A stretch of DNA of 64,000 nucleotides from Myxococcales bacterium (GTDB lineage Bacteria; Myxococcota_A; UBA9042): contig JBBISH010000016.1 in NCBI GenBank assembly GCA_037441385.1, forward strand, positions 1 through 64,000, in the 5' to 3' direction. This document shows positions 2,780 to 55,742 of the stretch, in pieces (positions within the stretch are counted from its first letter, which is position 1; each line of letters begins with the position of its first letter). Position numbers and translations under genes: made by a program. Under the pieces are notes generated by a model. It worked only from the letters and a program-made list of their open reading frames with translations, did no database searches and was not told where the DNA came from.

Positions 2780-4327
<1,548 letters not shown>

Positions 4328-4531: not shown

Positions 4532-4608
<77 letters not shown>

Positions 4609-4684
4609 GCGTCGGGCCCGCAACCCCGAATCCCGCAGGACGAAGTTCTTGGGGGACGAGTTTCGGAGCAATCCGCGATTCATC

Positions 4685-5054: not shown

Positions 5055-8018
<2,964 letters not shown>

Positions 8019-8146
8019 CCGCATTGGCATCAAATCGTTCTTGTGGCTGCAGCAGAGACCCGCAACGGGTCTGCCAGCCAAAGTGCAAAGCGTCCGAGCC
8101 TACGGGCCGCGTTCAACTCTATCTACGTTATCGAACAGGTCACAGT

Positions 8147-8264
8147 TTCCGGTGGCCATAGCGGAGAGGTTCCACCCGATCACATTCCGAACTCGGAAGT
8201 TAAGCTCTCCAGCGCCAATGGTACTTGATGGGAGACCGTCTGGGAGAGTAGGACGCTGCCGGAA
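8147..8264 (+). rRNA. rrf: 5S rRNA
   Basis: TTCCGGTGGC...CCGAACTCGGAAGTTAAG...GAGAGTAGGACGCTGCCGGAA with complementary ends. Confidence 0.97.
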
Positions 8265-30005: not shown

Positions 30006-30941
30006 CTACAGCGGTGGGCAGAACTTGTCGTCGCAGCCGGGGCCCGTCTTGGTGCTCTCGTCTTTGGCACACACGGCGCAGTAGTAGCCACAGGGCAGCA
30101 CATCGTAGTTGCCGGGCGCGCACGGTGGCTGGAATTCCTTGGGCAACGCCATCGTCGAGCACTGCCGCCACTGATCGGCCGGATCCACATTGGGATTGCC
30201 CGGCACCGACAAGAGGCAGCCCCAGCACACGTCCAAGGGGTACTCCATAGTGCCCGAGACCACGTTGTTGCCGCCGGCGGTCTTGCCCTGCAGCTGGAAC
30301 TTCAGCACCACTCGCTCGATGGTGCGGGCGCGGTCGGTGAACTGAGAGAACCGTTGCTGCCACTCGGCGCCCACCGGCTTGCCCGGCGCCGCAAAATCGG
30401 GCACCAGATTCATCCCGATCAAGGCTTTGCTGTTGGCCGGGATGAAGGCCTGCACGGGCAGGTCCCACTGGGCCAGGTTCTGACCGGTGATGGTCTTGTT
30501 GACCTTGACCGTGCTGCTCGGCAGCGAGAACGGCGACGTGGCCTTGGTCGACGGCGAACGCACCATAGTCACGTTCACGTTGGTGATGTTGACCGAGTTA
30601 GGATCCAGACGCAGCGAACTGGGCCCCGAGCCGTTGATCAGCTGCAGCGACGGCAGGTTGTTCTTGACCGACCCGACGAACTTGAACTCGCGCGACAGCG
30701 CCACATCCATCACGCCGTCCAGATAGAAGTTCTGACCGCCGGTGTACGAGCACTGCAAGATGCCGTTGACCACCGTGGCTTGCGGCACCACGTTGCCTTC
30801 GACCGCCAACGCCGTGTTGTTGTAGGAGTCGCAGCCGGCTGCCAACGCGGCCAGTCCCAGGCCCGCGACACCGATGCAGACACGGCGCACCGGCAGCTGG
30901 CGGGTCGCTCCACTAAGCAATCCGTCGAAATTAATCTGCAT
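30006..30941 (-). CDS. Cys-rich lipoprotein, last gene of the pil-aro run
   Basis: GAGGAGG RBS before ATG 30941, lipobox LAAGC, about nine Cys in the C-terminal ~85 aa; overlaps the aroKB 3' end. Confidence 0.8.
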   Translation of the reverse strand: MQINFDGLLSGATRQLPVRRVCIGVAGLGLAALAAGCDSYNNTALAVEGNVVPQATVVNGILQCSYTGGQNFYLDGVMDVALSREFKFVGSVKNNLPSLQLINGSGPSSLRLDPNSVNITNVNVTMVRSPSTKATSPFSLPSSTVKVNKTITGQNLAQWDLPVQAFIPANSKALIGMNLVPDFAAPGKPVGAEWQQRFSQFTDRARTIERVVLKFQLQGKTAGGNNVVSGTMEYPLDVCWGCLLSVPGNPNVDPADQWRQCSTMALPKEFQPPCAPGNYDVLPCGYYCAVCAKDESTKTGPGCDDKFCPPL

Positions 30942-32631
30942 TCTTGCCTCCTCGCTGCTGTGCAAAACCGCCCGGCAGCGGCGACGACGCGGCCGGCAGG
31001 GAAGTTCGCACATGGGTCGGCGCCGTCGCGCCCAGTTCGGCCAAGCGGGTTTGCCAGAGGCCGGCGTCGACCGCCAGCAACTCAGCATGCCCGACGCCGC
31101 GGAGCAGTGGCAACCACAGCTGGTGCCCGCGGCGTTTCTTGTCAGTAGCGGTCCGCGCCAGCGTAGTGGCGGTCGCCCATCGTTCCCATTGGGTTTCCAA
31201 ACCCAACGCTTCCAGTCCCAGCCGCACCGCTTGCGCTGTGCCGACTTCGGCCAGGCCCAAGCTCTCGGCACACTCGGCCTCGCCCACCAATCCCAGCGCC
31301 ACGGCCTCGCCGTGCAGCACCGCGAACTTGCTCTCGGCTTCGATGGCGTGGCCCAGCGTGTGGCCCAGGTTGAGCAGCGCCCGCGCCGATGCGTGGCCGG
31401 GGCCCTGCCGCTCTTCTGGATCCGCGGCCACCACCGCGGCTTTGTGGCGAATCGCCGCCCGCAGGTGCGGGGTCAGCGCGGCCAGCGAGCGCCGCCGCAA
31501 CGCCGGGGCGTCGGCCAGCAACGCCTGCCAAGCCTGGGTATCAAAGGTAAGGAAAATCTTGGCGATTTCTGCCAGACCGGCCCGGAACTGCCGCGCCGGA
31601 AGGGTCTGCAGGGCCTGCAGCGGCAGCCACACCCACTCGGGGCTGTGGAACGCGCCGACTAGGTTCTTGCCTTCTGGTGTGTCGATCGCGGTCTTGGCGC
31701 CCACCGACGCATCGGCCATCGCCAGCACCGTCGTGGGCAGCAAGGCCGTGCGCATGCCGCGCTGCCAGGTCGCCGCACAAAAGCCGGCCACATCCGTCGT
31801 CGCGCCGCCGCCGATCGCCACCAGCAGATCGCTGCGACCCACGCCGGCGGTGGCTAGCGCCGACCAGATCCGGCTGGCGGTGCGCAGGTCCTTGCACTTC
31901 TCGCCCCCGGCCACTTCGATCACCGCGGTGGCGAGTCCGCGCGCTTGCAGCATCTCGACCAGCGGTTGCGCCCACTTGGCCACGCCCCGATCGATCACCA
32001 GCGCCACCTTGCCGCCCGCCGCCAGCGCCACAATGGCTTCCGCAGCTTGGGCCGGTGCGCCGCCGTGCAGCCACACCGGGTGGGTCTGGGCGGCCACGGT
32101 CGCGTCCAGCACGGGCTCGGCCGGCTCCAGCGCACCCAGCACCGCCGTCACCACCGCGCTCAGCGGTTGCGCCGCGTCGACATGCGCGTGGGCCTTGGCA
32201 TAGATCGGCCGGCGCCGCAGCTCTAGCTCCACGAGCGCTGTGCGTGCGCTTTGCCGCGTGTCGCCCAGCAGCGGCCGGTCGGTGTCGTCGTGCAGGGCGC
32301 GCTCGCTCAGCACGTCGACCGGCGCGTCGAGCCACACCACTTGGGCCTTGTCGCGCATGCGCTCGATGCCATTATGGAAACACGGCGCACCGCCGCCAGC
32401 GGCGATCACGGCGGGCGGACCTGCCAGCACTTGCTCCAGTAGCGCCGCCTCGTGGATGCGAAACACCGTCTCGCCCTCGCGACGTAGCATTTCGGCAGCC
32501 GTGCGGCCACTTTCGCGCTGAAGCACGGCGTCCAGATCCAGGCACGGCATGGCCAGCCGCTCGGCCACACGGGCGGCGACGGCGGTCTTGCCAGCTGCGG
32601 GCATGCCTATGATCACGACGCTTTGCCTCAC
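30931..32631 (-). CDS. aroKB: Fused shikimate kinase / 3-dehydroquinate synthase
   Basis: GMPAAGKT P-loop and RPLL (AroK); GGGATTDVAGF, PTTVLAMADASVGAKT and LNLGHTLGHAIE (AroB). Confidence 0.93.
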   Translation of the reverse strand: MRQSVVIIGMPAAGKTAVAARVAERLAMPCLDLDAVLQRESGRTAAEMLRREGETVFRIHEAALLEQVLAGPPAVIAAGGGAPCFHNGIERMRDKAQVVWLDAPVDVLSERALHDDTDRPLLGDTRQSARTALVELELRRRPIYAKAHAHVDAAQPLSAVVTAVLGALEPAEPVLDATVAAQTHPVWLHGGAPAQAAEAIVALAAGGKVALVIDRGVAKWAQPLVEMLQARGLATAVIEVAGGEKCKDLRTASRIWSALATAGVGRSDLLVAIGGGATTDVAGFCAATWQRGMRTALLPTTVLAMADASVGAKTAIDTPEGKNLVGAFHSPEWVWLPLQALQTLPARQFRAGLAEIAKIFLTFDTQAWQALLADAPALRRRSLAALTPHLRAAIRHKAAVVAADPEERQGPGHASARALLNLGHTLGHAIEAESKFAVLHGEAVALGLVGEAECAESLGLAEVGTAQAVRLGLEALGLETQWERWATATTLARTATDKKRRGHQLWLPLLRGVGHAELLAVDAGLWQTRLAELGATAPTHVRTSLPAASSPLPGGFAQQRGGKNAD

Positions 32632-32652: not shown

Positions 32653-35600
32653 CTACTTGCCCACCGTCAAAGACGACGAGCGGTTGACGATGCGGGGGGT
32701 GATGAAGATGAGCAGTTCCGTGCGCTTGTCTTCTTCGCGGCGGGTGCGGAACATCGCGCCGATCAGCGGAATGTCGCCAAAGAACGGCACCTTCTTGGTC
32801 GAGAGCGAGGTGTTGCGGGTATAAATGCCGCCGATCACCGTCGTCTCGCCGTCGCCCAGCAAAAGCTCCGTATTGGCTTCGCGTTGCGTGATGGTCGGGT
32901 TGCCGTCTGCCGCGCGGTTGCTGAAGTCCGGCTCGTTCTTGGTCACGTTCACGGCCAGCTTGACGTTGCCGTCCTGGGTGATATGCGGCGTGGCCGAGAG
33001 CTTCAGGTCGGCGCTGAAGAAGCGCGTCTGCACGCCCTGGGCCGACACGACCGAGATCGGGATCGAGATGCCTTGCTTGATGGTGGCCTGGTAGTTGTCC
33101 AGCGTCAGCACCTTGGGACTCGAGACGATCTTGACCACACCTTCTTGCTCGGCCGCGCTCAAGCGCAGGTTCAAGTTGCCCGCGCCGCCCAGCGAACCCA
33201 AGGTCAGACCGATCGCACCACCGGCGCCGGTACCCACGGCGGCCGGCAGGTTCACGGCGTAGTTCGGAATCGCCGTCGCAACGCCGTCTTTGTTGGGCGC
33301 CTGGCTGTCCGCGCCGCCGCCCACGCCCACCACGCTGGGGAAGGGCAGGCCGGTCTCGTTGCCGTAGACCGAGCTCATGGCGTAGTTGCCGCCCCACTGG
33401 ATACCGACTTCCTTGCTGAACGCCGAGCTGGCCTCGACCACTCGCGCTTCGATCAGCACTTGCGGCGTCTGCCCGTCCAGCTTGCGCACCAGCTCTTCTA
33501 CGGCTGCCACGTGGTCTTCGGTGTCGGTGACCACCAGCGAGTTGGTGCGGGCGTCCATCGTCACCGAGCCCTTCTTGCTCTTGATGGCGTTGGCCTGCGG
33601 CACGAGCTGTTCGGCCTGGGCGTAGTTGACCGGAATGATGCGGACGACCAGCTGCTTGACCTCTTCCAGCTTCTGCCGGCGCTCGACTTCGGCGTCGAAC
33701 TCCTTCTTCAGCGAGTCGATGGTCGCGACGCGGATCACGCCGGCCTGGCGCACGTAGTCGTAGCCGCGGGCGCGCAGGATCACGTCCAGCGCCAGGTCCC
33801 ACGGGATGTTCTCCAGGTGGAACGTGACTTTGCCTTGGACTTCCGGCCCGGCGATGATGTTCAGCTTGCCTTCCTTGGCCAGGAACGTCAGCACGTGCTG
33901 GATGTCTGCGTCCTTGATGGTCAAGTTGATGCGCTTGCCGGTGTAGCGGCGGTTCTTGCGCCACGGCGTCTTGATGTCGCCGCCCCCTTCGCCGCCACCG
34001 CTGGGGCCGCCGGCATCTTCGGGCGCCATCACAGGTTGCGGGGCCGCGGCCAACACATCGCCGCCCGACTTCACGGCGCGCGACACGCCCTTGGGGCCGT
34101 CGGCCACTTCTTGGCGCTCGGCGCCTTCCACGCGGTCAAAGTCCCACATCAGCTGGCCGTCACGCAGCGTCACGCGGTCGGCGGCGCGATCGCTCAGATC
34201 GACCACGACGCGCACTTCGTCCTGCACACCCTCGGGCCGGAACACGGTGACGCGCTCGAGCGGACCTTGCAGCGCCTTGGTGTCGTAGGCGCGCTGCAGG
34301 TGCTCGGGCAGGCGCACGCCGCGCACGGCCAAGACGACGCGGTTGGGCTGGCGGCTGACCACTTCGGCGCGCGCCATCTCGGCGCCGCCACCCAGGGCTA
34401 GCTCGACGTGGCCGCGGCGCCGACCTTCGGCCGTGATGCGCACGTCGTCGATGCGGCCCATGTCGTCGCTCTTGGCGGCGCGCTCGTTGCGGGCCTTCTG
34501 CCGCTCTTGCTCGGCTTCGCGGCGCAGCACCTGGGCCTGGGCGGCGGCCTGCTCGGCGGCAGCCTCGGCATTGCGGCGCTGCTCGGCACCCTGGGCCTCG
34601 CGGCGGGCGCGCTGCAACTCGTCGGCCAGGCGCTGCTTCTCGGCGCGCTCGGCCGCCAAACGCTGCTCCTGCTCGGCGATGCGGCGCTCGGCGTCGGCGG
34701 TCTGGCGCGACTCGGCCTCGCGCTCTTGCCGCTCGCGCTCGGCGCGCGCTTCCAGAACGGCGATGCGGGCCTGCTGGCGCTGCACGTAGTCGCCACCGCC
34801 CTTGCTGCCCGCCGCCGCTTCGGCCTGCTTGCGCCGGTTCTGCTCGGCGGCCAACTGCGACTGCAGGTCCTGCTCGCGCTGGACGTACTTCTCTTCCAGG
34901 GCTTTTTCGCGGGCCTCGTGCTCGGCCTGCAGCTGGGCGCGCACGGTGGCCAGCTCTTTCTCTACGCGCTCTTGGGTGCGCTTTTGCTGCTCGGCAGCGG
35001 CCTTTTCGGCCATGGCCACCTTGGCGCGCACGTCGTCGACCGCGCGTTCGGCCGCCACGATGCGAGCGCGCGACGAGGCGCGATCGCTGCGCATGGCTTC
35101 GAGCTCGCCTTCGCGGGCACGCAGGTTGCGCGACAGATCACCCATCTTCTCTTCGGCTTGCCGGCGAGCGGCCTGCTCGCGTTCGGCTTCGCGCCGCGCC
35201 GCCGCCACCGCCTGGTCGCGGTCGTGCAGCGCCTTCTTGGCCATCTCGGTGTCCTTGCTCAGGCGCTGCGTCTCGCGCTGCGCGGCCTGCGCCTCCTGGT
35301 GCCGACCGGCCGCCGCCGCCGCCTGCTCGCGCCGCTTGGACTCGCCCAGGGCGCGGTTCAGGGCGTCGATGCGCTCTTGGGTCTTGGCCTGCAGGTTGCG
35401 CAGCTCGGCCTCGCGCTGGTCCAGCAGACCCTGTACGGCCTCGGCCTGCTTGCTGGCGGCCGCAGCCTGCTGGCTTGCGGCCACGGCCTTGCGCGACTCT
35501 TGGGCCCGCGCCGCTTCCTTTTCGCGAAGTTGCGCCTCGTACGAGTTGCTGAGCGCCTGCTCGCGACGGGCCAGTTCGGCCTTCAACTCCATGCGCACCT

Positions 35601-38600
35601 GGGCCACACGATCTTCGGCATCGCGCTCCATCTTGCGGACTTCGGCGTCGCGGGCGGCCATCGACGCGTCGATCTGCTTGCGCAGCGCGGCCACCTGAGC
35701 CTCGGCCTGAGCGACCGACTTGCCTTGATCCTGGCCACCCACGCGCAACCGCTGCAGCTCCGCCTCGCGCTCGGCCAGGGCCGTCTGCAGGCGCTGTGCC
35801 TCTTGCTCTGCCGCCGCGCGGGCTTCGGCTTGCCGCTTGGACTCGCCGACTGCATTTTGCAGCGCCGTCTCGCGGGCCTTCAGATCCGTTTGCAGGGATC
35901 CCAGCGCCGTCTCTAGGCTCTTGCGCTCTTCCTTCGCCTTGTCCGCCTCGGCCGCGCGGCCCTTGGCCTGGGCGTCCTTTTCGCGCTGGCTGGCTTCGTC
36001 CAGCTGGGCTTCCAGAGCCGCCTGGCGGACTTGCATCTCGTCGTGCAGCCGTTGCAGCTCTTGCTCGCGGTCCTTCAGCAAGCCTTCGACGCGGGAGGCG
36101 CGCTCTTGCGCCTGGCGCGCCTGCTCGCCGCGCTCGCTCTGGACGCGGGCCAACTCGCGGGCGTGGGCCTGCTCCAGCTCTTGCCGCATCGCGCCCAGCC
36201 GGCTGTCGAACTGCTCGGCCATGGCCCTTTCGCGGCGGGCCTGATCGGCAAGCTGACTCTGCAGGCGCTGGCGGGCCTCGGCCACGGCGCGCTGGGCGCT
36301 GGCCATTTCGTCCGCTTTGGCGGACTTGCGGGACTTCAGGCTGCCCAGCTCGCGCTCGCGGTCGGCCAGGGCCTTTTGCAGGCGATCCGCCTCTTGCTCG
36401 GCTTTGTCACGGGCTTCGGCCTGCAGCTTCGCCTCGCGGCGCGCGGCGGCCACCGCGTCGGTCTGGCTCTGCAGATCCTTGCGCAACTGGGCCTGTGCGG
36501 CTTCCAGCCGCTGGCGCTCTTGGCGGGCGCTCTCTTGATCGGCGCGTCGACCCTCGCGCAGCGCCTTGTCTTCGGCCGCCTTGACCTCGCGCATCTGGGC
36601 CGCAAGTTTGTCCTCGCGCTCGCGGACCGACGCCTTCAGGGCGGCCACTTCTCGCTCACGCGCGGCCAACTGCTGTTCCACGCCCTGGGCGCGCTGAGCC
36701 GCAGCCGAGCGCTCGCGTTCCAGATCCGCCACCGCCGCCTTGGCGCGCTGCAGCTCGGCCTGCGACGAGGCCAGCTCGGCGCGGACACCCTGCAACTGCC
36801 CCTGCAGCTTGGCCTGCAGCTCGGCCACCTGGCGATCCTGGTCGGCTTGCTGGGCCGCAAGTTGCTGGCGCGCCTTCTGCACCTCGGCTTGGGCCGCGGC
36901 GATCTGATGGTTCGAAGCAGCTTTGCCCTTGGCCAACTCGGCCAGCGCTGCTTCGCGCTCGGCCAGACTGTTGCGCAGCTTTTGGGCCTCGGCCTCGGCC
37001 TGCTGACGCGCCTTGCCGTTGCGCTCCGCCTCGCCGCGGGCCGTCGCCAACTCGCGATCGCGACTGGCCAGCTCTTTGGCCAGCTCGGCCTGCTTGGCCT
37101 CGATGTCGCCGCGCGCCTTTTGCGCCGCCGCCAGCTCACTCTGCTTGCCGGCCCGCTTGGCTTCATCTTCGCGGGCCTTGGCCTGACTCAGCTCGGCCTT
37201 CAGGTTTGCCTCGCGGTCCTTCAGGGCGGTGCGCAGGTTCTGCAACTCGCGCTCGCGCTGATCCAGCAGGTCTTGCACTTGCGCTGCCCGCTGGGCTGCC
37301 GCGGCGTTCTCGCGCTGCAATTCGGCCTTCTCGGCGCGCAGGTCGGCCAGCTGGGCTTGCGCCGCCGCCAAGTCCTTTTGCACGCCCTGCAGCTGACCCT
37401 GGAGCTTTTGCTGCAGCGCGGCCAATTGCGCATCGCGCTCGGCCTCTTGATCGCGCAGCTTGGCGCGCGCGGCTGCCACTTCCGCTTCGGCCTTGGCGAT
37501 CTGCTGACGGCTCGCAGCGGTGCCCTGACCGAGCGATTGCAGGGCGGCCTCGCGCTCGGCCAGCGCCGACCGGAGCTTCTGATTCTCGACCTCGGCTTGC
37601 TGCCGGGCCTGGGTGGTCTTTTCGACTTCGCGGCGCGCGGCCTTCAACTCCTCGTCGCGGCGGCTCAATTCGCGGGCCGCTTCGGCCTGACGACGCTCGA
37701 CGTCGGCACGGGCCTGGCGGGCGGCCTCGACTTCGGCTTGCTTGCCGGCTCGCTCGGCCGCCTGCTCGCGCTGGCGGGCTTGCGCCAGTTCGGCCTGCAG
37801 ACCCGACTCCTTGTTCTGCAGCGTTGTCCGCAGGTTCTGCAGCTCGCGCTCGCGCTGGGCCAGCAGGTCTTGGACTTGCTCGGCGCGGGCGGCGGCGGCG
37901 GCCTTCTGCCGCTCCAGATCGGCGTTTTGCTTCTTCAGGCCTGCGACTTCGGCTTGGGCCGAGGCCAGATCGCGCTGCACTTCGTCCAGCTGACCCTGCA
38001 ATTTTTGCTGCATGGCCTGCAGTTGCCGGTCGCGCTCGGCGGCCTGCGCCACCAACTGCGCTCGGGCCGCGGCAACCTGGGCCTGCGCCTGCTGGATCTG
38101 CTGGGCGCTCGCGTCCTTGCCCTTGGCCAGGGACTGCAGCGCAGCCTCGCGGTCGGCCAGCACGTTGCGCAGGCGCTCGGCTTCCTGCTCGGCTTGCTTG
38201 CGGGCCTGGGTATTGCGCTCCACGTCTTGACGGGCAGCCGCCAGATCCGCGTCGCGCTTGACCAATTCCTTGCTCAGTTCGGCTTGGCGGGCGCGAATGG
38301 TCTCTTGGGCTTGCTGCGCAGCCGCGACTTCCGCCGCCTTGCCGCCTTGCTTGGCCTGCGCTTCGCGGGCCTTGGCCTCGGCCAATTCCGCGGCCAGCGA
38401 CGACTCGCGATCCTTCAGGGCCAGGCGCAGGTTTTGCAGCTCGCGCTCGCGCTGCCCCAGCAGATCCTGGACGCGACCGGCGCGCTCGGCCGCGGCAGCC
38501 TTCTCGCGCTCAAGGTCGGCCACCTTGGCCTGGCTGGCCGCCAGCTTGCGCTCACTCTCGGCCGCCCGCTCTTCGGCCAGGCGCCACTTGCGCTCGGCCT

Positions 38601-39777
38601 GCTCGCGCTCGTAGTCGGCGCGCTTGGCCTTTTCCAGGGCGTTCTCGGTGTCCATCAAGCGGCTGCGCGCCGCGGCGAGTTCGCCGGCCAGTTGCTCCTG
38701 CTTGCGCTTGGCCTCGGCGTCCGAACCCGCGCGCGCGGCCTGCAGATCGCGGTCTTTTTCGGCCAAGATCTTCTTGAGGTGCTCGACTTCTTCGGCTTGG
38801 GCTTGCCGGCGCGACTCGCTGGCCCGGCGCATCTCGTCGCGGAGCTGCTCGGCCTGTTGCTTGGCCCTTTCCAGCTCGGCTTGCAGCACCGCCAAACGCT
38901 CGTCGCGGGCCGCGCCTTCTTGCTTTTGCAGCGCGGCGATCTGCTGGCGCAGCAGTTCCACGCGCGCTTCCTCGGATTGCCGTTGCGCGACCACAGCTTG
39001 CAGCGAGGCGCGCTCTTTGTTCAGCTCGGCGCGCAAGGCGTCAGCGGCCTTCTGCTCGCTCGCCAGCCGGGCGGCGGCAGCTTGGGCGGCCTGCTCGGCG
39101 TCGGCTAGGCGCTTCTTGAGCGCCTCTTGGGCCTGCAGGTCGGTCTTGGCGCGCGCCAGTTCGTCGGCCAGGCGGTTGCGCTCGTCTTGCGCTTGCTTAC
39201 TGGCCAGCGCGGCTTGCTCTTCGCGGGCGCGGGTGGCGCGCAGTTCGTCGGCCAGCTGCTTTTCGCGCGCGGCGGCGGTCTTGACGGCCTGCTCGTTGGC
39301 CGCCACCTGGGCGCTCTGGGCCTGGTTCAGCTTGCGGTCGCTGCCGTCGACCACGACCACGACGGTATTGCCGTCGGCGCGGACGTGGTACAGGGCATCT
39401 TGTTCAAAGGTCACGACAATTCGACCCACCGGCGCGCCCGACTTCTTGGTCGACTGCACCTCGATGGACCGCACCACGCCGTTGCCCACGTACTTGGGTG
39501 CTTCCAGCCCTTGCACGTCGCTGCCCGCCACGTCGATGAACAGGCGCGAGGGCTTGTCCAGGCGGAAAGTCGTAAACGTAGGCGCCGCCAGACCGCGCAC
39601 CGTGATGACGGTGGTCTGGGTCGCTTCTTGCACGTCGACGGCGGTCAGGGTGTTGCTCGCCTGGCCAGTGCCCTCGGCCGCGAACAAAGGCGTCGCCGGC
39701 AGGGCCATGGTCGTCGACAAGAACAAGCCCATCGACGAGCGCAGCAGCCGCTTGGCCATCGTTTGCTTGGTTCTCAT
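32653..39777 (-). CDS. pilQ: Type IV pilus secretin PilQ, giant form (2374 aa): signal peptide, AMIN, ~1620-aa helical insert, AMIN, N0/N1, secretin
   Basis: GAGGAG RBS. AMIN-like FRLDKPSRLFIDV near the N-terminus and a second AMIN-like segment from ~aa 1775. YTGKRINLTIKDADI...IPWDLALDVIL, PQVLIEARVVE and TELLIFITPRIV. Follows pilMNOP. Confidence 0.95.
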   Translation of the reverse strand: MRTKQTMAKRLLRSSMGLFLSTTMALPATPLFAAEGTGQASNTLTAVDVQEATQTTVITVRGLAAPTFTTFRLDKPSRLFIDVAGSDVQGLEAPKYVGNGVVRSIEVQSTKKSGAPVGRIVVTFEQDALYHVRADGNTVVVVVDGSDRKLNQAQSAQVAANEQAVKTAAAREKQLADELRATRAREEQAALASKQAQDERNRLADELARAKTDLQAQEALKKRLADAEQAAQAAAARLASEQKAADALRAELNKERASLQAVVAQRQSEEARVELLRQQIAALQKQEGAARDERLAVLQAELERAKQQAEQLRDEMRRASESRRQAQAEEVEHLKKILAEKDRDLQAARAGSDAEAKRKQEQLAGELAAARSRLMDTENALEKAKRADYEREQAERKWRLAEERAAESERKLAASQAKVADLEREKAAAAERAGRVQDLLGQRERELQNLRLALKDRESSLAAELAEAKAREAQAKQGGKAAEVAAAQQAQETIRARQAELSKELVKRDADLAAARQDVERNTQARKQAEQEAERLRNVLADREAALQSLAKGKDASAQQIQQAQAQVAAARAQLVAQAAERDRQLQAMQQKLQGQLDEVQRDLASAQAEVAGLKKQNADLERQKAAAAARAEQVQDLLAQRERELQNLRTTLQNKESGLQAELAQARQREQAAERAGKQAEVEAARQARADVERRQAEAARELSRRDEELKAARREVEKTTQARQQAEVENQKLRSALAEREAALQSLGQGTAASRQQIAKAEAEVAAARAKLRDQEAERDAQLAALQQKLQGQLQGVQKDLAAAQAQLADLRAEKAELQRENAAAAQRAAQVQDLLDQRERELQNLRTALKDREANLKAELSQAKAREDEAKRAGKQSELAAAQKARGDIEAKQAELAKELASRDRELATARGEAERNGKARQQAEAEAQKLRNSLAEREAALAELAKGKAASNHQIAAAQAEVQKARQQLAAQQADQDRQVAELQAKLQGQLQGVRAELASSQAELQRAKAAVADLERERSAAAQRAQGVEQQLAAREREVAALKASVREREDKLAAQMREVKAAEDKALREGRRADQESARQERQRLEAAQAQLRKDLQSQTDAVAAARREAKLQAEARDKAEQEADRLQKALADRERELGSLKSRKSAKADEMASAQRAVAEARQRLQSQLADQARRERAMAEQFDSRLGAMRQELEQAHARELARVQSERGEQARQAQERASRVEGLLKDREQELQRLHDEMQVRQAALEAQLDEASQREKDAQAKGRAAEADKAKEERKSLETALGSLQTDLKARETALQNAVGESKRQAEARAAAEQEAQRLQTALAEREAELQRLRVGGQDQGKSVAQAEAQVAALRKQIDASMAARDAEVRKMERDAEDRVAQVRMELKAELARREQALSNSYEAQLREKEAARAQESRKAVAASQQAAAASKQAEAVQGLLDQREAELRNLQAKTQERIDALNRALGESKRREQAAAAAGRHQEAQAAQRETQRLSKDTEMAKKALHDRDQAVAAARREAEREQAARRQAEEKMGDLSRNLRAREGELEAMRSDRASSRARIVAAERAVDDVRAKVAMAEKAAAEQQKRTQERVEKELATVRAQLQAEHEAREKALEEKYVQREQDLQSQLAAEQNRRKQAEAAAGSKGGGDYVQRQQARIAVLEARAERERQEREAESRQTADAERRIAEQEQRLAAERAEKQRLADELQRARREAQGAEQRRNAEAAAEQAAAQAQVLRREAEQERQKARNERAAKSDDMGRIDDVRITAEGRRRGHVELALGGGAEMARAEVVSRQPNRVVLAVRGVRLPEHLQRAYDTKALQGPLERVTVFRPEGVQDEVRVVVDLSDRAADRVTLRDGQLMWDFDRVEGAERQEVADGPKGVSRAVKSGGDVLAAAPQPVMAPEDAGGPSGGGEGGGDIKTPWRKNRRYTGKRINLTIKDADIQHVLTFLAKEGKLNIIAGPEVQGKVTFHLENIPWDLALDVILRARGYDYVRQAGVIRVATIDSLKKEFDAEVERRQKLEEVKQLVVRIIPVNYAQAEQLVPQANAIKSKKGSVTMDARTNSLVVTDTEDHVAAVEELVRKLDGQTPQVLIEARVVEASSAFSKEVGIQWGGNYAMSSVYGNETGLPFPSVVGVGGGADSQAPNKDGVATAIPNYAVNLPAAVGTGAGGAIGLTLGSLGGAGNLNLRLSAAEQEGVVKIVSSPKVLTLDNYQATIKQGISIPISVVSAQGVQTRFFSADLKLSATPHITQDGNVKLAVNVTKNEPDFSNRAADGNPTITQREANTELLLGDGETTVIGGIYTRNTSLSTKKVPFFGDIPLIGAMFRTRREEDKRTELLIFITPRIVNRSSSLTVGK
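34840..38472 (-). repeat. Six diverged ~597-bp (199-aa) coding repeats inside pilQ
   Basis: Anchor V[QE]xxLxxRExE[LV] starts at 38472, 37875, 37278, 36681, 36090 and 35436 (spacings 597, 597, 597, 591, 654 bp). Confidence 0.9.
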
Positions 39778-39837: not shown

Positions 39838-40509
39838 TCAGGGTACGTCGCCAACATCTTCGTCGCCGGGTTCGCCCACCGAGATGGGCGGAGCCAGCGA
39901 CAACGTCACCGGTTTCTCTTTGCCGGGCACAGACAGAATCACCTTGTACTGGGTGATCGCCGTCACGCGCGCCCCGTCGTTGCCCAATGCGTCGCCGCGC
40001 ACCACGTCGCAGCGCCCGCCATCGGGATCCGTAAACACGGCCTTGGGTTGCGCCACGCCGGTCATGATCATGAACAGGACATAGCGCTCGATTGGGCCTT
40101 TGGTCGCACAGGTGTCAGGCAGGTCCGCGGGCCGCTCGTCCATGCCCACGGGCTGGTCCACCACGGCTTGCTCGGGCACCTTGGGCCACTCGACGACCTT
40201 GGTCGTGTTGTCCAGCGACCAATTCACCACGCCGTCGATGGGCTCTTTGGTATACCGGTCGAACAAACCCTTGATGGGCCGCCACTTGGGATTCTCGCCC
40301 AACACTTGATACGCGCCCGAGGCGGCGCTGCTGCTCGAGTTGCTGGACTCCGTGCCGGCCAAGCGGTTCAGGGCCTGGTTCATGTCCTTGGGTGGCGGCT
40401 TCTTGGCCTCGCCGCCGCCGCCACATGCCACCAGCGCCAGCGATGCCAACGCCAGCAGCGCGCGCGCCGCTGGCTTGCCCAGCATGTTCAGGACAGCTGA
40501 CTGCAGCAT
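39838..40509 (-). CDS. pilP: PilP-like lipoprotein
   Basis: Lies between pilO and pilQ with a TGATG overlap. Lipobox LVAC, beta domain IMTGVAQPKAVFTDPDGG...GDALGNDGARVTAI. Confidence 0.85.
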   Translation of the reverse strand: MLQSAVLNMLGKPAARALLALASLALVACGGGGEAKKPPPKDMNQALNRLAGTESSNSSSSAASGAYQVLGENPKWRPIKGLFDRYTKEPIDGVVNWSLDNTTKVVEWPKVPEQAVVDQPVGMDERPADLPDTCATKGPIERYVLFMIMTGVAQPKAVFTDPDGGRCDVVRGDALGNDGARVTAITQYKVILSVPGKEKPVTLSLAPPISVGEPGDEDVGDVP

Positions 40510-41255
40510 CAGGTCCTCTTCTTCTTCGGCTTTTCGCGCCGAGCCATGCCTTCTTTGAGCTCGGCCGGCTTGCCGGTCCACACAAAGGCGTAGGCGGTAA
40601 AGGTCGCCCGGATGGTCGTGCGGTCGCGCGCCATGTCGGCCATCTCGAACTTCTCGTACAAAATGGCCTCGGGGCTCTTGTTCGTTTCTTGCTTTTTGTC
40701 GCCTTCCACGGGCTTGTGCGCCGAGTCGTAGGCCGCGCGCACCAGACCGGATTCTGGCACCACTGTTTCGACGCTGATGCCCCGGATGTTGATCAGGCGT
40801 CGGCTCATGCCCGCGTACAACCGCAAAAATTCGATGAACTGCTGGACGGTGCCTTCCAACGTCACCTTGATCGGGATGGCGTTGTAGAGGTCTTCGCTCT
40901 CTTCCTGCAGGCGGTCGAAGCGCTTGATGGTCAAGTGGATGTCGGTGGCGTCGGCCTGGACCCCGTCGATGAACTTGGGGATCTCGTCGGCCGAGGGGAA
41001 GCCGGCGCGGCGCCGTTTGTCCTCTTCGACCAGATCGTCCTTCTCTTTGCGCAGCTTGTCCGCCGCCTCGCTACTGGCCGAGGACTTCAGCGCATTGACG
41101 TCGCGCTCCAGCTTGGTCAACTGCGCGCGCGCTTGATCGGCTTTGCCCAACTCGGGATCGACCAGGCCAAAGTACAGGCCCAGCGCGACGACCACCAGGA
41201 TGCCTGCCAACACCGCGGCCTTTTGGGCGGGCGGCAACTTCATGAACTGTTCCAT
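40509..41255 (-). CDS. pilO: Type IV pilus alignment protein PilO
   Basis: N-terminal TM, coiled coil, FPSADEIPKF, YNAIPIKVTLEGT, RRLINI; operon position. Confidence 0.88.
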   Translation of the reverse strand: MEQFMKLPPAQKAAVLAGILVVVALGLYFGLVDPELGKADQARAQLTKLERDVNALKSSASSEAADKLRKEKDDLVEEDKRRRAGFPSADEIPKFIDGVQADATDIHLTIKRFDRLQEESEDLYNAIPIKVTLEGTVQQFIEFLRLYAGMSRRLINIRGISVETVVPESGLVRAAYDSAHKPVEGDKKQETNKSPEAILYEKFEMADMARDRTTIRATFTAYAFVWTGKPAELKEGMARREKPKKKRT

Positions 41256-41273: not shown

Positions 41274-42344
41274 TTATTCCGCTGCCGGCATCTTGTCGGC
41301 CGGTGCAGCTGCGGGTGGTGGTTCGGCGGCTTGATGGGCAGCCGGCATGGCCGCTTTGCCGTCGTCGCGCGGCAACTCGTCGGCCTTGGCTTTGCCGGCC
41401 TCGGCCTTGGCGGGCTCGGCTTTGGGCGCTTCGGCCTTGGCGTCCGGCGCAGTCGCCGTGTCGGGCTCGCTGTCTTTGGCCTCGGCCGGCGTGTCCGGCG
41501 CCGACCCGGCATCGATGTCGTCGGCTGCCGTCGCCGCTGCGGGCAGGGGCAGTGCCACCTTGGTGCCGATGACGGCCGCGTCGTCGCCGGTGCTGCCTGC
41601 GTCGGCGGCGCCGCCATCCGTAGAGCCAGCGTCCGCGCCATTGCCCGCAGCAGCGCCTTCTTCGGGTTTGGCCGGATTCAGCGGTTCGATCAGATAGACC
41701 AGCGAAGCCCGGATCGAGAATTCGACATAGGTGATGCCGATCTGGTCGTCGCGCTTCTTTTCTTGGTAAATCAGCTTGGGTTCGCGGAAGTACGGGCTCG
41801 ACTCCAAGCGCCACTGCAGCTCGGCCACGTCTTCGTGCCCCAGCGCGCGGCCCTGGATGGTCACCTCGCCGCCCGACTCGCGGTACGTCGTGACCCACGC
41901 GCGGCGCGCGTCCCAGCCCACGTGCCAACCCGCGGCCTCAAAGGCCACCAGATCGGCCGTGGGCGTCTCGTGTTGCTGGCGCGGCTGCAGGATGAACGAC
42001 AGGTATTGCAGGGCGCCCGCCGGCCCGTCCTTTTCGGCAAACAGCTCGTCGAGCACGGCCTTCTGATCGCGGAGTTTCTTGATCTCTTCGGTGGCCAGCG
42101 CGATCGCCTTCTTGTTCTCTTCCAGCTTGACGAGCTCCAGCTTGCGCCGCTCGAGCTGGGACTTGGCGCGCGTCGCCTCTTCCGCGGCGGTGTTTTGCCA
42201 CAGATAGAAAACGGCCAGTTCCATGACCAAGAACAGCACGAACAGCAAGATGCCGACGTTGGGGATATCGGGCAGGCGCAAGCCCGCGCCGCCCTTGCGA
42301 CTTTTCTTACCGGCGCCGCCACCGATCAGGTTGATGCGAATCAT
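41274..42344 (-). CDS. pilN: Type IV pilus alignment protein PilN with a long acidic low-complexity tail
   Basis: MIRINL PilM-binding motif, TM, coiled coil, VTIQGRA..LESSPYF. True start is ATG 42344. Confidence 0.9.
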   Translation of the reverse strand: MIRINLIGGGAGKKSRKGGAGLRLPDIPNVGILLFVLFLVMELAVFYLWQNTAAEEATRAKSQLERRKLELVKLEENKKAIALATEEIKKLRDQKAVLDELFAEKDGPAGALQYLSFILQPRQQHETPTADLVAFEAAGWHVGWDARRAWVTTYRESGGEVTIQGRALGHEDVAELQWRLESSPYFREPKLIYQEKKRDDQIGITYVEFSIRASLVYLIEPLNPAKPEEGAAAGNGADAGSTDGGAADAGSTGDDAAVIGTKVALPLPAAATAADDIDAGSAPDTPAEAKDSEPDTATAPDAKAEAPKAEPAKAEAGKAKADELPRDDGKAAMPAAHQAAEPPPAAAPADKMPAAE

Positions 42345-42352: not shown

Positions 42353-43408
42353 CTACCGATCTCCCAGCCGGCGCATCGCCAGACCCACCGCCACGCCCGC
42401 CACCGGCGCCATGCGCTGCAGCATTTGGGCGTCGAACTTCTTGGGGTCGACGACGACGTTGTTGAAAGGATTGAGCGCCCGCACCGTGGTGCCCAGGCGA
42501 CGTTCGATGCCTTCGATGAGGCCCGCTTGCACAGCCGCGCCGCCGCACAAGTAGATGGCGGCGATGTCCGAGTTCATGGCCGTGGCGGCAAAGAAATCGA
42601 GCGAGCGCTGGATTTCGTTGATGAGCACCTCGGACACGCGTCCCGAAATGCGCTGCACCTCGCGCAGCACGCCCGACATGGACAGCGTCGTCTCCGACGT
42701 GGTCTTCATGTGCTCGGCTTCGTCCCAGGGCACGGCGAATTGTTTGGCGATTTCGTCTGTGAGCAGGTTGCCGCCTACGGTGATGTCGCGGGTGAACGAG
42801 GTCGTGCCGTCGCTGACGACGTTGATGTTGATGGTCGAGGCGCCCACGTTGACCAGCGCCACCGTCTCGTGCGTCGGCACCGCAAAGTTCAACTCGAACG
42901 CATTGTAGAGGGCAAAACAGTCGACGTCGACTACCACCGGTTCCAGCTTGCAGGCCCGCACCACGTCGAGCATTTCCTCGATCACCGCCTTCTTGGCGGC
43001 CACCAGCAGCACGTCCATCTGGCCCTGGCCGGCGTGCGGGTTGATGATCTGGTAGTCGACGTTCACATCTTTGATATCAAAGGGGATGTACTGCTCAGCC
43101 TCCCACTGGATCTGTTCGTCCAGCTCGGCCGGCGTCATCTCGGGCAGCGAGATCTTCTTGATGATGACCGAGTGGCCCGACAGCGACACGGCCACGCGCC
43201 GCTCGCGCACCTTGTTGGCCGCGATCAACTCGCCCACGCGCTGCGCCAGCAGCGGAGCGTTGAGGATCACCCCATCCTTGATGGCATCGGGCGGGAGCAT
43301 CATCGTGTCAAAGGCCAGCAGCTGCGCGCCCTTGGATGTCTCCTTGAGGTGGGCGAGCTTGATCGACGACGAGCCGATGTCCAAGCCGACGGCATTTCTG
43401 GTCGCCAT
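42353..43408 (-). CDS. pilM: Type IV pilus assembly protein PilM
   Basis: GLDIGSSSIK, WEAEQYIPF, DVLLVAAK, EIQRSLDFF, LCGGAA. Confidence 0.97.
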   Translation of the reverse strand: MATRNAVGLDIGSSSIKLAHLKETSKGAQLLAFDTMMLPPDAIKDGVILNAPLLAQRVGELIAANKVRERRVAVSLSGHSVIIKKISLPEMTPAELDEQIQWEAEQYIPFDIKDVNVDYQIINPHAGQGQMDVLLVAAKKAVIEEMLDVVRACKLEPVVVDVDCFALYNAFELNFAVPTHETVALVNVGASTININVVSDGTTSFTRDITVGGNLLTDEIAKQFAVPWDEAEHMKTTSETTLSMSGVLREVQRISGRVSEVLINEIQRSLDFFAATAMNSDIAAIYLCGGAAVQAGLIEGIERRLGTTVRALNPFNNVVVDPKKFDAQMLQRMAPVAGVAVGLAMRRLGDR

Positions 43409-43532
43409 GCTCGCGCTGCTCCTGCACGGGCCGAAGTGGCCCAAACCCACCGACACGCTTCCGGTATGCCTTTTTGGTATGCCGTTGCGGTGGGAGGTGC
43501 GCCGGGCCTAGCCCAACACACTCCAAGGGGCA

Positions 43533-43561: not shown

Positions 43562-43815
43562 GAAAACCAAAGGATCCGTCAGATCCTGTGCGGATCTTGC
43601 CGGCGCCGGCCGCGCGCCATCGCCGGAGCTGGGCAATTCGCTTGCGCGGCGCGCCCTTCCACGAAGCCATGACGCCCACTTCCCGCGGATCCTGGCAGGC
43701 GGACCGGCGGCGCGCTATGCTGCCGGCCCGGCGCCAGTGCGCGCCCAGGGCCATGCCGATGCCGAACCCCGCCGTCAGCCCCACTGCCGCCCATCGTGGG
43801 CAACTCAATGAAGTC

Positions 43816-45114
43816 ATGAACAAAGATTCCGCAATGCCTCAGGTCCGTCCGGCCGCCGGGGTATTTCGTCCGCCCGCGTTGGCCGATTCCGAGGTTTTCG
43901 CGCTGGCGCAGCGTTACCTTACGCCCAATTACAAGAATTCGCCGATCGTTTTCAGCCACGGCGAGGGGCCTTGGAACATCACCAGCGACGGACGCCGCTT
44001 CTTGGACATGAGCGCTGGCGTGGCGGTCAACGCGCTCGGCCACGGCCACCCCGACCTGGTTGCGGCGATCGCCGAGCAATCGGCGCGTTTGGTTCATCAG
44101 TCCAACTATTGGCACAACCAGCACGCGGCGCCGCTCGCCGCCGATTTGTGCCAGCGCTTCGAGAAGGCGGTGCTCGCCGCGACGGGCAAGGTCGAGCAAG
44201 GTCGCATCTTCTTTTGCAATTCTGGCGCAGAAGGCACCGAGGCGGCCATCAAGACCGCGCGCCGTTACCACGCTCGCGTGCTGGGCAAGGCGCGGCCCGG
44301 TATCGTGACCGTCCAGGGCAGCTTCCACGGCCGTACTTACGCGGCCATGACCGCCACCGCCCAGCCCAAGTACCAAGACGGCTTCGAGCCGCTGGTGCCT
44401 GGGTTCCGCTATGCCAAGTTCGGCGATTTGGACAGCATTGCCGCGCAGATCGACGACACGGTCGGCGCCGTGCTCATCGAAGTCGTGCAGGGCGAGGGCG
44501 GCGTGTGTGTGGCGCCTGCCGGTTTCTTCAAGGCGCTGCGCCAACTTTGCGACGATCGCGGCGTGCTGCTGTGCCTGGACGAGGTCCAGACCGGCATTGG
44601 CCGCACCGGCACGTTCTTTGCCTTCGAGCAAGAGGGCATCGCCCCCGACATCGTGTGGCTGGCCAAGGCTCTGGGCGGCGGCATCCCGGTGGGGGCGATG
44701 ATCGCCCGCGAGGCGGTGGCCCAGGCGCTGCAACCTGGTACCCACGCTACGACTTTTGGCGCCAACGCGCTGTGCATGTACGTGGGCCGCGTGGTGCTAG
44801 GCGTCTTGGACCGCGACGATCTGGTGGCCAACGCTGCTGCGATGGGCGAGCTGCTGCTCGGCGAGTTGAAAAAAGCCCTGGGCGACAAGCCCTATGTCGT
44901 CGACATCCGCGGCCGCGGCCTGATGTGTGGGGTGCAGATCCGCGGCGACGTCAAGGCCGTGATCGACGCGGCCCGCAGCATGGGCCTGCTGGTCTCGCTG
45001 GCGGGCAGCGACGTCGTGCGCCTGACGCCGCCGCTGATCATCGGCCCCGAGCACGTGGATTTCGCCGTGTCGCGCTTGCTGGCGGCGGCGGAGCAGGTGC
45101 TCGCTAACGCTTGA
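43816..45114 (+). CDS. argD: Acetylornithine aminotransferase (class III PLP enzyme)
   Basis: FFCNSGAE, SFHGRT, EVVQGEGG, DEVQTGIGRTG, LAKALGGG. Start is 43816 or 43834. Confidence 0.88.
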   Translation: MNKDSAMPQVRPAAGVFRPPALADSEVFALAQRYLTPNYKNSPIVFSHGEGPWNITSDGRRFLDMSAGVAVNALGHGHPDLVAAIAEQSARLVHQSNYWHNQHAAPLAADLCQRFEKAVLAATGKVEQGRIFFCNSGAEGTEAAIKTARRYHARVLGKARPGIVTVQGSFHGRTYAAMTATAQPKYQDGFEPLVPGFRYAKFGDLDSIAAQIDDTVGAVLIEVVQGEGGVCVAPAGFFKALRQLCDDRGVLLCLDEVQTGIGRTGTFFAFEQEGIAPDIVWLAKALGGGIPVGAMIAREAVAQALQPGTHATTFGANALCMYVGRVVLGVLDRDDLVANAAAMGELLLGELKKALGDKPYVVDIRGRGLMCGVQIRGDVKAVIDAARSMGLLVSLAGSDVVRLTPPLIIGPEHVDFAVSRLLAAAEQVLANA

Positions 45115-45186
45115 ACCCTGCGACTGGTCTGCTACCCTATTGCCTCGCCTTGGTGCCTTGATTGGGCACCCCAATCTGGAGTTTTT

Positions 45187-46098
45187 ATGCGCATCCGCTC
45201 CGTGACCACCCTTGCTGTCTTGGTTTCTTCCTTTGTTCTGGCCAGCTGTGCCGACACCGGCGGCGGTGGTGGCGGTGGCGGCGGAACCACGACCGACACC
45301 TCCACGGGCACGGGCAACGACACGAGCACCAGCACGGGCGGCGACACCAGCACCACCAAGACCGACACCACGTCGCAGGCCGGGACCGAGAAGTCGATCG
45401 TCGACATCCAGAAGGCCTCGGTCGCCTGCAAGGCGGGCGCCGACGGCAAGGAACCGCAGTCGTTTGGCGCAGCTGCGGGTATCACCATTCGCAACGCGGT
45501 GGTCACCTCGCCCGGCAGCAAGGCCAACAAGGATGGCAGCTTGGTCGGCATTTACGTGCAGCAAAAGGGTGGCGGCCAGTTCTCGGGCATCTACGTGACC
45601 GGCAAGAAAGACAGCGAAGTCGGCCAAGTGGCTCCCGGCGACGTGATCACCATCACCGGCGATGTGAGTGACTACTACTGCTTTACCGAAATCTTTAACA
45701 AGTTTGCGGTGATCGAGTCGCAGGGCCAAGAAATGCCGATGCCCGTCACCGTCACCACCGACGACATTGGCGACATCGCCGGCAAAGACAAGACCGAGCC
45801 GTACGAAGGCGTGCTGGTTCAGCTGCACGACGTGACCGTGGGCGACGACGCCCTGGGCAGCGATGGCAAGCCGCACGGCGAGCAGTACGTGGGCAAGACG
45901 GCCGACGACAAGGCGTTGCGCATGGGCTCGACGTTCTTTGGCGTCTACCTGAGCGACAAGAACGCCGACGGCACCTACACTCCCAAGTACCCCAAGGGCA
46001 CCAAGCTGGGCACCGTGACCGGCGTGCTGCAGTACAGCTTTGGCGCCTTTACGTTGGAGATCACCAAGGATCCCGAGAACGTGATCAAGGCGAAATAA
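45187..46098 (+). CDS. Lipoprotein with Gly/Thr linker and two probable OB-fold domains
   Basis: GGAG RBS, lipobox LASC, GIYVQQ..SGIYV..VAPGDVITITGDVSDY, EPYEGVLVQL, VTGVLQYSFG. Confidence 0.8.
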   Translation: MRIRSVTTLAVLVSSFVLASCADTGGGGGGGGGTTTDTSTGTGNDTSTSTGGDTSTTKTDTTSQAGTEKSIVDIQKASVACKAGADGKEPQSFGAAAGITIRNAVVTSPGSKANKDGSLVGIYVQQKGGGQFSGIYVTGKKDSEVGQVAPGDVITITGDVSDYYCFTEIFNKFAVIESQGQEMPMPVTVTTDDIGDIAGKDKTEPYEGVLVQLHDVTVGDDALGSDGKPHGEQYVGKTADDKALRMGSTFFGVYLSDKNADGTYTPKYPKGTKLGTVTGVLQYSFGAFTLEITKDPENVIKAK

Positions 46099-46310
46099 CG
46101 CCGGTAGCCCAAGGGTTGCATGGGCGGCGACGCGGGCGGCGCAGCGAGCGGACCCGTCATACGGAATCCGCCTGAATCGGCTCGAAATCTCCGGCAATTC
46201 CCCGGGCTCGAACCGGGGTCCACGCCTGATTCTCGCTAGTTGCACAACAGGTCAGAGAAGCCATGCAGGCGCGAATCAGGTGGGGTTCGTACTACAACTG
46301 AGGAAAAAGA

Positions 46311-55583: not shown

Positions 55584-55630
55584 CAAGCGCCTCGTGCTGG
55601 CGGTGCCTCTGGCCAGCAGCCGAGCCGCGA

Positions 55631-55659
55631 AGTCTAGGCGTGCACGCGCAAATTGGCAA
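55631..55659 (-). promoter_or_regulatory. sigma70-type promoter for the GT-mtnA-M16 run
   Basis: Minus strand TTGCCA-17 bp-TAGACT. Confidence 0.6.
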
Positions 55660-55714
55660 ACGGTCGGCCGATCTTGCTGCTTGCTTGGGCGCCTTGGCCC
55701 GCGGGTACGCCCAC

Positions 55715-55742
55715 TTGACAGGTCGGCTGGGGCCGCCATACT
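55715..55742 (+). promoter_or_regulatory. sigma70-type promoter pointing toward dnaG-rpoD
   Basis: TTGACA-16 bp-CATACT, divergent from the promoter above. Confidence 0.6.

Follow-up and report, generated by a model that had tools for sequence, protein, structure and literature searches.

A family-specific 199-residue repeat in the giant PilQ secretin of uncultured myxobacteria, predicted to fold as a rod of three-helix bundles

We have analysed a stretch of 64,000 nucleotides from a Myxococcales bacterium (positions 1 to 64,000, forward strand, of contig JBBISH010000016.1 in assembly GCA_037441385.1; lineage Myxococcota_A, UBA9042), referred to here as the window, and we describe a tandem repeat within its pilQ gene, which encodes a giant type IV pilus secretin. 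The host open reading frame (ORF) occupies 32653–39777 on the minus strand and its translation has 2374 residues. The repeat stretch (34837–38469, minus strand) corresponds to residues 437–1647 of this PilQ and lies in a spacer of ~1640 residues (aa 150–1790) between two AMIN domains. We interpret the six units, with moderate confidence, as a tandem chain of family-specific 199-residue modules, which is predicted to form a three-helix-bundle rod between the AMIN domains and may serve as a tether to a distal anchor.

The pilQ gene and its six-unit array

The features of the gene, all on the minus strand, are given below in the order of the protein; bit scores of the units are from a hidden Markov model (HMM) of the unit.

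32653–39777: pilQ, giant type IV pilus secretin, 2374 aa (ORF, Pfam, TIGR02515)
Start of pilQ, ahead of AMIN domain 1: signal peptide, Sec-type, about aa 1–34 (by eye from the translation)
39355–39642: AMIN domain 1, aa 46–141 (PF11741, 28.8 bits, cut-off 20.5)
38470–39330: N-terminal helical flank of the spacer, aa 150–436, with one degenerate unit at about aa 166–332
37873–38469: Unit 1, aa 437–635, column-43 Gly at aa 479 (229 bits)
37276–37872: Unit 2, aa 636–834, column-43 Gly at aa 678 (225.9 bits)
36679–37275: Unit 3, aa 835–1033, column-43 Gly at aa 877 (231.4 bits)
36088–36678: Unit 4, aa 1034–1230, Gly at aa 1076 (203.9 bits)
35434–36087: Unit 5, aa 1231–1448, 218 aa with extra residues in the junction zone, Gly at aa 1273 (198.2 bits)
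34837–35433: Unit 6, aa 1449–1647, Gly at aa 1491 (205 bits)
34411–34836: C-terminal helical flank of the spacer, aa 1648–1789, no recognisable unit
34189–34416: AMIN domain 2, aa 1788–1863 (PF11741, 32.2 bits, cut-off 20.5; aa 1790–1863 in the whole-protein scan)
32686–33918: secretin core, with N0/STN at aa 1954–2017, Secretin_N at 2045–2106 and Secretin at 2208–2364 (Pfam)

The spacer contains no proline, and 79% of its residues are A, E, R, Q, L or K. Using anchor motifs and the unit HMM, we located six in-register units beginning at residues 437, 636, 835, 1034, 1231 and 1449. Their spacings of 199, 199, 199, 197 and 218 residues reproduce exactly those given in an earlier reading of the DNA letters alone (the sequence-only reading), whose coordinates translate to aa 436–1646. 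BLOSUM autocorrelation of the spacer peaked at offsets of 199 (z 10.6) and 398 (z 7.2). In unit-to-unit BLASTP, run with composition-based statistics, units 1–3 were ~60% identical among themselves (E 1e-37 to 1e-54), unit 1 matching unit 3 at 61.6% over 198 residues (E 1.5e-54) and unit 2 at 60.5% over 152 residues (E 1.3e-37). Units 4–6 matched units 1–3 at 35–40% in most pairs and at 44% over 52 residues, with E values of 1e-19 to 1e-3 (unit 1 against unit 4, 37.4%, E 3.4e-19; unit 3 against unit 5, 36.3%, E 9.4e-10; unit 3 against unit 6, 37.3%, E 3.9e-6). From the MAFFT alignment, the identities of units 2–6 to unit 1 were 61, 62, 37, 34 and 29%. The repeat is therefore real and exceeds what composition would give, and the earlier observation that units 1–3 are the most alike and units 4–6 more diverged (29–40%) holds by both methods.

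An assembly artefact or a recent duplication was rejected as the origin of the array, in agreement with the sequence-only reading, which had argued against an artefact. The DNA identity among units 1–3 is only 63–64%, third-codon identity at their conserved residues is 58–60% and thus near saturation, and the same six-unit array is present in an independently assembled relative (L001/G028).

Outside the six units, a profile built from 183 units (described below) recognised a degenerate extra unit at aa 166–332 (profile positions 14–182, conditional E 3e-5 at Z=1). With the same profile, aa 341–435 of the N-terminal flank reached a conditional E of only 0.079 at Z=1, and the C-terminal flank (aa 1648–1789) was non-significant (E 1). 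An internal duplication of half-units was also rejected, the hhalign probability of columns 1–99 against columns 100–199 being 21%.

Searches for a known repeat family (Pfam on the protein and the units, a PDB profile search and the ESM Atlas) returned only sub-threshold, generic coiled-coil matches; the near-matches in the PDB and Pfam profiles, e.g. Sec2p, intermediate filament and the crescentin rod, were noise of this kind. The sole above-cut-off Pfam match in the array was Pedibin/Hym-346, a short Hydra peptide family, at 35.1 bits (cut-off 25.8) over 17 residues at the boundary of units 1 and 2 (aa 633–649, about 37829–37879, minus strand). This match is almost certainly coincidental, a short profile having met the conserved VQDLL-QRERELQ motif.

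The whole-protein Pfam scan identified two AMIN domains, STN/N0, Secretin_N and Secretin, with scores of 162.5 bits for PF00263, 56.9 bits for PF03958 and 28.7 bits for PF07660. The C-terminal 585 residues scored 419.3 bits (cut-off 284.35) against NCBIfam TIGR02515, 'type IV pilus secretin PilQ'. The genes pilM, pilN, pilO and a putative pilP lie directly upstream on the same strand, and a fused aroK-aroB lies downstream, as listed here (minus strand throughout).

42353–43456: pilM (Pfam PilM_2)
About 42344 to 41274: pilN, true start at the MIRINL motif (Pfam PilN)
40509–41255: pilO (Pfam PilO)
39838–40581: putative pilP, a pilP-sized ORF without a family match
30931–32631: fused aroK-aroB (Pfam SKI and DHQ_synthase)

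Because of the secretin and AMIN domains, the TIGR02515 score, and the presence of pilM, pilN and pilO upstream and of aroK-aroB downstream, we assign the gene as pilQ, and judged by its sequence the protein belongs to the PilQ family. The start of PilN (41274–42344, minus strand) is the internal MIRINL motif, at aa 69 of the listed ORF. Its translation has one membrane segment, an ordinary short coiled coil and, after the core domain, a tail of ~130 residues in which Ala, Pro, Asp and Lys abound, which is unusual for PilN.

Conserved sites and predicted fold of the unit

Conservation was assessed on 183 units taken from 16 database proteins and 21 genome loci, a redundant set with overlapping sources. 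At site 1 (column 43), a Gly is present in all six units of the window and in 182 of the 183 units, and the segment around it (columns 36–51) has the same length in every one of them. The helix segments are also of constant length: columns 4–36 and 51–111 in 181 units each, and columns 139–168 in 180. Site 2 (columns about 115–124) keeps its position in all units, but its sequence is not conserved; A, R, S, Q, K, D and G are abundant there, and 97 units have a G or P. Columns 111–128 comprise between 15 and 28 residues, and the differences in length are not multiples of a heptad. A third indel-tolerant zone, at columns 168–187 (5 to 32 residues), coincides with the bundle junction of the models described below. 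In 70 units, columns 4, 11, 25, 58, 100, 104 and 111 are 99–100% hydrophobic with a spacing of 3–4, and certain charged residues are conserved like the core (R7 99%, R90 99%, R107 97%, E8 90%). This conservation pattern fits fixed helices connected at joints. The sequence-only reading had described two conserved breaks per unit. Both are indeed helix breaks at constant positions in the AlphaFold2 models, but only site 1 is conserved in sequence, site 2 being a variable loop, and the third joint at columns 168–187 had been missed.

In the averaged profile we observed a jump of ~160 degrees in the 3.5-residue hydrophobicity phase at Gly43, with lesser shifts close to column 148 and where two units meet; over columns 178–192 the signal is gone. 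With this phase jump and the non-heptad indels at site 2, the unit does not show the unbroken heptad register of a canonical two-stranded coiled coil. It also differs from a single alpha-helix (SAH) domain, a charged E/K/R helix without a conserved hydrophobic seam, in that such a seam is present at 3–4 spacing.

AlphaFold2 was run on a single module of 210 aa that starts at column 176 of one unit and ends at column 186 of the following one (36718–37347, minus strand), and on units 2 and 3 together (aa 636–1033); for the latter, the alignment comprised 57 pairs of tandem units drawn from the window and its relatives. The single module was modelled as a three-helix bundle with helices at 2–66, 69–140 and 146–209, a predicted local distance difference test score (pLDDT) of 93.5 (at least 90.7 in all five models) and a predicted template modelling score (pTM) of 0.81. 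For the two-unit model, the mean pLDDT was 86.5 and the pTM 0.58, with helices at 2–42, 45–116, 122–241, 244–315 and 321–397. Its breaks at 43–44 and 117–121 correspond to both sites, and the 120-residue helix (122–241) crosses the unit boundary unbroken. In these models the helices break exactly at the two sites named in the sequence-only reading, and neither the one-unit nor the two-unit model is a featureless continuous helix, so its proposal of a modular helical bundle is borne out at the level of prediction.

The fold is accordingly predicted as a chain of three-helix bundles joined via a continuous helix. Each period would be an antiparallel up-down-up bundle about 10 nm long, in which the near-invariant Gly forms the turn between helix A (about 65 aa) and helix B (72 aa), the polar loop of variable length forms that between helices B and C, and helix C continues unbroken as helix A of the next module, a spectrin-style joining. 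The helix lengths suggest 7–10 nm per unit. Six clear modules, or about eight if the degenerate flanks are counted, would then make up a segmented rod, which by arithmetic would measure roughly 45–80 nm; without fold-back the helix would span ~245 nm.

Mutual information between columns is consistent with this topology. Among ~300 antidiagonals, the top three (i+j = 243, 83 and 87) fall within 4 of the sums expected for hairpins, 239 and 87, and this covariation weakly supports a packing that is antiparallel around both sites. Differences between unit classes dominate the raw top pairs, and only the antidiagonal summary is usable.

Superpositions of known structures on the single module point in the same direction. 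The amphiphysin BAR domain 4atm gave a template modelling (TM) score of 0.62 with a root-mean-square deviation (rmsd) of 5.1 Å over 210 columns, the BAR domain of ACAP4 a Z of 11.4 (187 aligned, rmsd 4.2), and the V arm of ALIX a Z of 11.5 (178 aligned); I-BAR domains and the designed three-helix bundle 4tql were also among the best, and all of these superpositions extend over the whole module. Like the module, BAR, I-BAR and F-BAR monomers, 4tql and the ALIX V arm consist of three antiparallel helices of 60–75 residues. However, their identities to the unit are 7–16% and none of the scores is significant; for the BAR monomers (TM 0.52–0.62, Z 10.5–11.4 over 182–210 residues) the Foldseek E is at least 0.1 and the Z is common for any bundle. 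BAR-type dimerisation and membrane binding are not indicated here. We read these superpositions as indicating arrangement, not kinship.

The main rival to a folded-back chain is that the spacer forms a continuous, intermolecular parallel coiled coil of at least two PilQ protomers. The Gly and polar sites would then be stutters, skips or points of local unwinding, and the fold-back an artefact of modelling a single chain. Such a structure would account for the strong 3.5-residue periodicity over most of the unit, with its phase intact across site 2, for the lack of proline in 1641 residues, and for sequence profiles that return generic coiled-coil matches only. PilQ is also multimeric, as is established for secretins, so that chains are held side by side. 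We nevertheless judge it unlikely, because the invariant Gly coincides with the phase jump of ~160 degrees, and because site 2 varies by 1, 3, 4 and 8 residues among units, which is not tolerable in a continuous coiled coil. The single-module model is also of high confidence (pTM 0.81), the antidiagonal covariation points to antiparallel packing, and the ~245 nm rod that arithmetic gives would be hard to fit in a periplasm with an ordinary-looking PilN.

Distribution and history of the array

When 1.84 billion representative proteins were searched with a profile of the six units, 11 reached E ≤1e-3. Three of these were strong matches (E 5e-158 to 2e-76), all of them giant PilQs, two were short fragments without any family, and the remainder were weak, generic coiled-coil proteins. 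Thus the search with the six units, which had been suggested as a check along with one- and two-unit modelling, led strongly to giant PilQs only and to no known repeat family. By a word-indexed search we obtained 15 relatives of 1407–2646 aa, all with secretin domains.

Among genomes of the class, the 199-residue unit is present in 32 of the 36 other genomes of the window's family and in none of the 70 genomes of the other 17 families. The order consists of this single family, so that 33 of its 37 genomes carry the unit. The design with a 199-residue unit is confined to one family of uncultured myxobacteria. Of the genomes lacking it, one from the window's own genus (G025) is explained by an assembly cut, its pilQ beginning at a contig end. 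In genus g5 (three genomes, G009–G011) the absence is true: PilQ has 1123–1159 aa there, and its short spacer consists of tandem copies of a 12-residue unit. The core of PilQ in g5 (loci L016–L018, L020 and L021) is 51–52% identical to that of the window; the corresponding values are 69–76% for other genera of the family and 50–60% for other families of the class. From these sequences, genus g5 would be either misplaced or a case of pilQ replacement.

Of the 107 genomes of the class, 95 have the PilQ core itself, in frames of 1100–2830 aa where uncut by contig ends, and nearly all families of the class have frames in this range. In a phylum sample of 251 genomes, PilQ frames outside the class measured 544–1762 aa among the matches listed. 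One of these relatives (G158) has a frame of 901 aa, which we take to be the length of Myxococcus xanthus PilQ.

The spacers of other families show periodicities of 94 aa, 25/50 aa or 32 aa, or none that is clear. The 94-residue unit has two Gly-containing breaks and is present in about 5 copies, the 25-residue unit is nearly exact and occurs in many copies, and the 12-residue unit has about 12 copies; a 32-residue periodicity also occurs. Unrelated tandem units were seen in PilQ of L041 (G074) at aa about 978–1450, of L042 (G053) at aa about 600–900, of L045 (G080), and of L020 (G009) at aa about 200–350. As judged from sequence, the repeats between the AMIN domains appear to have expanded independently at the same site. 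The long helical spacer thus characterises the class, in which it was assembled independently out of different units, and the 199-residue module is the version of one family.

These spacers bring up an alternative in which length alone is required. Any soluble, repeat-prone helix would then suffice as filler, and the 199-residue unit would have been amplified by chance, without a specific fold or partner. Frames of 1100–2830 aa in nearly all families of the class, unrelated periodicities (12, 25, 32 and 94 aa) or none, a unit number that drifts between 4 and 8, and N-terminal units that turn over by lineage are all in line with it. However, paralogous units that are only 29–40% identical share the Gly, the charged residues R7, E8, R90 and R107 and the helix lengths, and the three C-terminal units are retained as orthologues family-wide. 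Together, these features reflect purifying selection on a defined structure, and we regard a pure filler as highly improbable.

For the history of the array, unit numbers were compared among relatives, another of the checks that had been suggested. With the profile, 4–8 units per gene were counted in 21 fetched genes of the family; the counts within the window's genus were 6, 6, 6, 7, 7 and 8. In a FastTree phylogeny of 113 units, the last units, including Unit 6, form one clade (21/21, support 1.0). The second-from-last units, including Unit 5, also fall in one clade (20/20), with a node support of only 0.09, and the third-from-last units of five genera, including Unit 4, are monophyletic (13/13, support 0.865). 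The N-terminal units group by lineage, and three units of one same-genus genome form a clade of their own (support 0.999). Because the last three positions each fall in one clade, we conclude that units 4–6 of the window are old and orthologous across the family, and the tree places the origin, or the homogenisation, of units 1–3 within lineages. The sequence-only reading had proposed growth by stepwise, old duplications. Growth by duplication is supported, and the array is old enough for its last three units to have orthologues throughout the family; the old age applies to units 4–6 but not to units 1–3, which are lineage-specific copies. Taken as a whole, that reading stands as to the bundle, the duplication, the exclusion of an artefact and the lack of a known family, and needs revision on the sequence of site 2, the number of joints and the age of units 1–3.

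Comparison with known systems and possible role of the rod

Secretins rank with the most closely studied envelope machines, and the usual view is that their AMIN domains work near the pore. The present protein shares with canonical PilQ of M. xanthus and Pseudomonas aeruginosa the domains AMIN, N0/STN, Secretin_N and Secretin and a pilMNOPQ operon followed by aroK/aroB. A passage of PMC10653833 gives three AMIN domains for M. xanthus PilQ and describes them as binding septal and polar peptidoglycan and as needed for polar recruitment. Here, in contrast, there are two AMIN domains with ~1640 helical residues between them and 2374 residues in total. A fusion of AMIN to a TolA-like charged helical region in delta-proteobacteria is described in a passage of de Souza et al. 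2008 (PMC2572700), which does not place the helical region in PilQ or give its size or repeat unit.

The closest likeness in construction is to the spectrin repeat (PF00435), which also consists of up-down-up three-helix bundles with a continuous linking helix, as predicted here. Spectrin repeats are about 106 aa long, whereas the present unit has 199 aa with helices of 65–72 residues and lies in a periplasmic part of a secretin. The Spectrin profile had no match in the whole protein (Pfam, E up to 0.1) or in the six units (E up to 1). The unit is thus not a member of the spectrin family, though the models predict that it works like one. The same mode of joining repeats has been described in EzrA, a bacterial spectrin-like protein, in a passage of PMC4243239.

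We propose that the rod keeps a distal wall anchor, AMIN domain 1, at a set distance from the pore. As the coiled coil of PilN is short and ordinary, the periplasm is probably of normal width, and a rod of this length would be too long to stand across it; it therefore probably lies along the sacculus, tying the pore subunits to the wall tens of nanometres away. A crown of such arms may brace or position each PilQ multimer on the polar sacculus, and the arm length may have been tuned in evolution through gain and loss of units (4–8 among relatives). The rod might act as a brace, as a spacer between machines or as a tether.

Several points weigh against this proposal of a tethering rod of folded-back bundles. 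The AlphaFold2 alignment is shallow (57 rows, with many paralogous units that come from one and the same protein), the models are of monomers, and AlphaFold2 tends to fold long coiled-coil monomers back on themselves. The topology was taken from secondary structure, pTM and the ranges of the fold matches, and the fold searches gave no significant match (Foldseek E at least 0.076; VIA Z at most 12.8, below the ~13 common for helical bundles). With helices of 120 and 72 residues, neighbouring bundles must overlap by ~24 residues if the shared helix is straight. Because the pLDDT of the two-unit model is lowest at the junction (79–80) and its pTM falls to 0.58, the junction between bundles is uncertain. 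The heptad phase of the consensus is unbroken across site 2 and would suit an unbroken helix too. As other families use unrelated units of 12, 25, 32 and 94 aa, length may matter more than the particular fold. Finally, no experiment on any giant PilQ was found.

By analogy with spectrin in the red-cell membrane, one may also imagine the bundles as mechanical fuses that unfold singly under the load of pilus retraction and then refold, so that the machine is elastically suspended; an extensible spring of this sort was already suggested in the sequence-only reading. The predicted tandem bundles with a continuous linking helix are of the spectrin-type elastic architecture, the rod lies between a wall anchor and the pore, and the extensible length would follow from the variable number of units. 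However, nothing puts the rod in the load path; it is established that the pilus threads the pore and is pulled by an inner-membrane motor. The strict helix lengths and the Gly turn would suit a stiff strut equally, and other families use quite different units. We find the spring distinctly unlikely.

A wider picture, which we offer as a speculation with small odds of being right, is that of a periplasmic 'spectrin'. Here a dozen or so PilQ subunits would each carry an arm of ~50–80 nm, built of three-helix bundles of double length and ending in a wall-binding AMIN domain; together the arms would lie along the sacculus and spread the retraction load over a wide patch of peptidoglycan. Unfolding would be elastic and reversible, the arms might also space the polar machines, and the number of units (4–8) would set their reach and compliance. 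If true, a bacterial envelope machine would here possess a mechanical element of a new kind, with an origin independent of eukaryotic spectrin.

What we consider new is the modular fold-back reading of the spacer with its joints, and a unit whose origin and turnover are specific to the family. In the literature, judged by title or abstract and with subscription journals outside the coverage, we found no paper on a helical-rod PilQ. A structured rod of 1640 residues between AMIN domains would imply, for this lineage, a pore fastened to peptidoglycan at a distance of tens of nanometres, and it raises questions on the positioning, spacing and mechanical bracing of pilus machines. We regard the unit as a new repeat family, predicted with confidence to belong to the long three-helix-bundle class and having a near-invariant Gly at its turn; it could serve as a natural model for modular rods. 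Spectrin-like concatenation may have arisen independently in the bacterial periplasm.

We also made a few observations elsewhere in the window. Two ORFs on the minus strand directly upstream of pilM, at 43579–44745 (388 aa) and 44797–46245 (482 aa), had no match in Pfam or NCBIfam and could be further accessory genes of the pilus machine. The low-GC stretch at 2–8 kb is due to a complete ribosomal RNA operon (16S, two tRNAs, 23S and 5S) at 2780–8264 on the plus strand. An ORF of 1422 aa at 51471–55739 (minus strand) has as its sole match PMT_2, a dolichyl-phosphate-mannose-type glycosyltransferase family, at aa 319–462.

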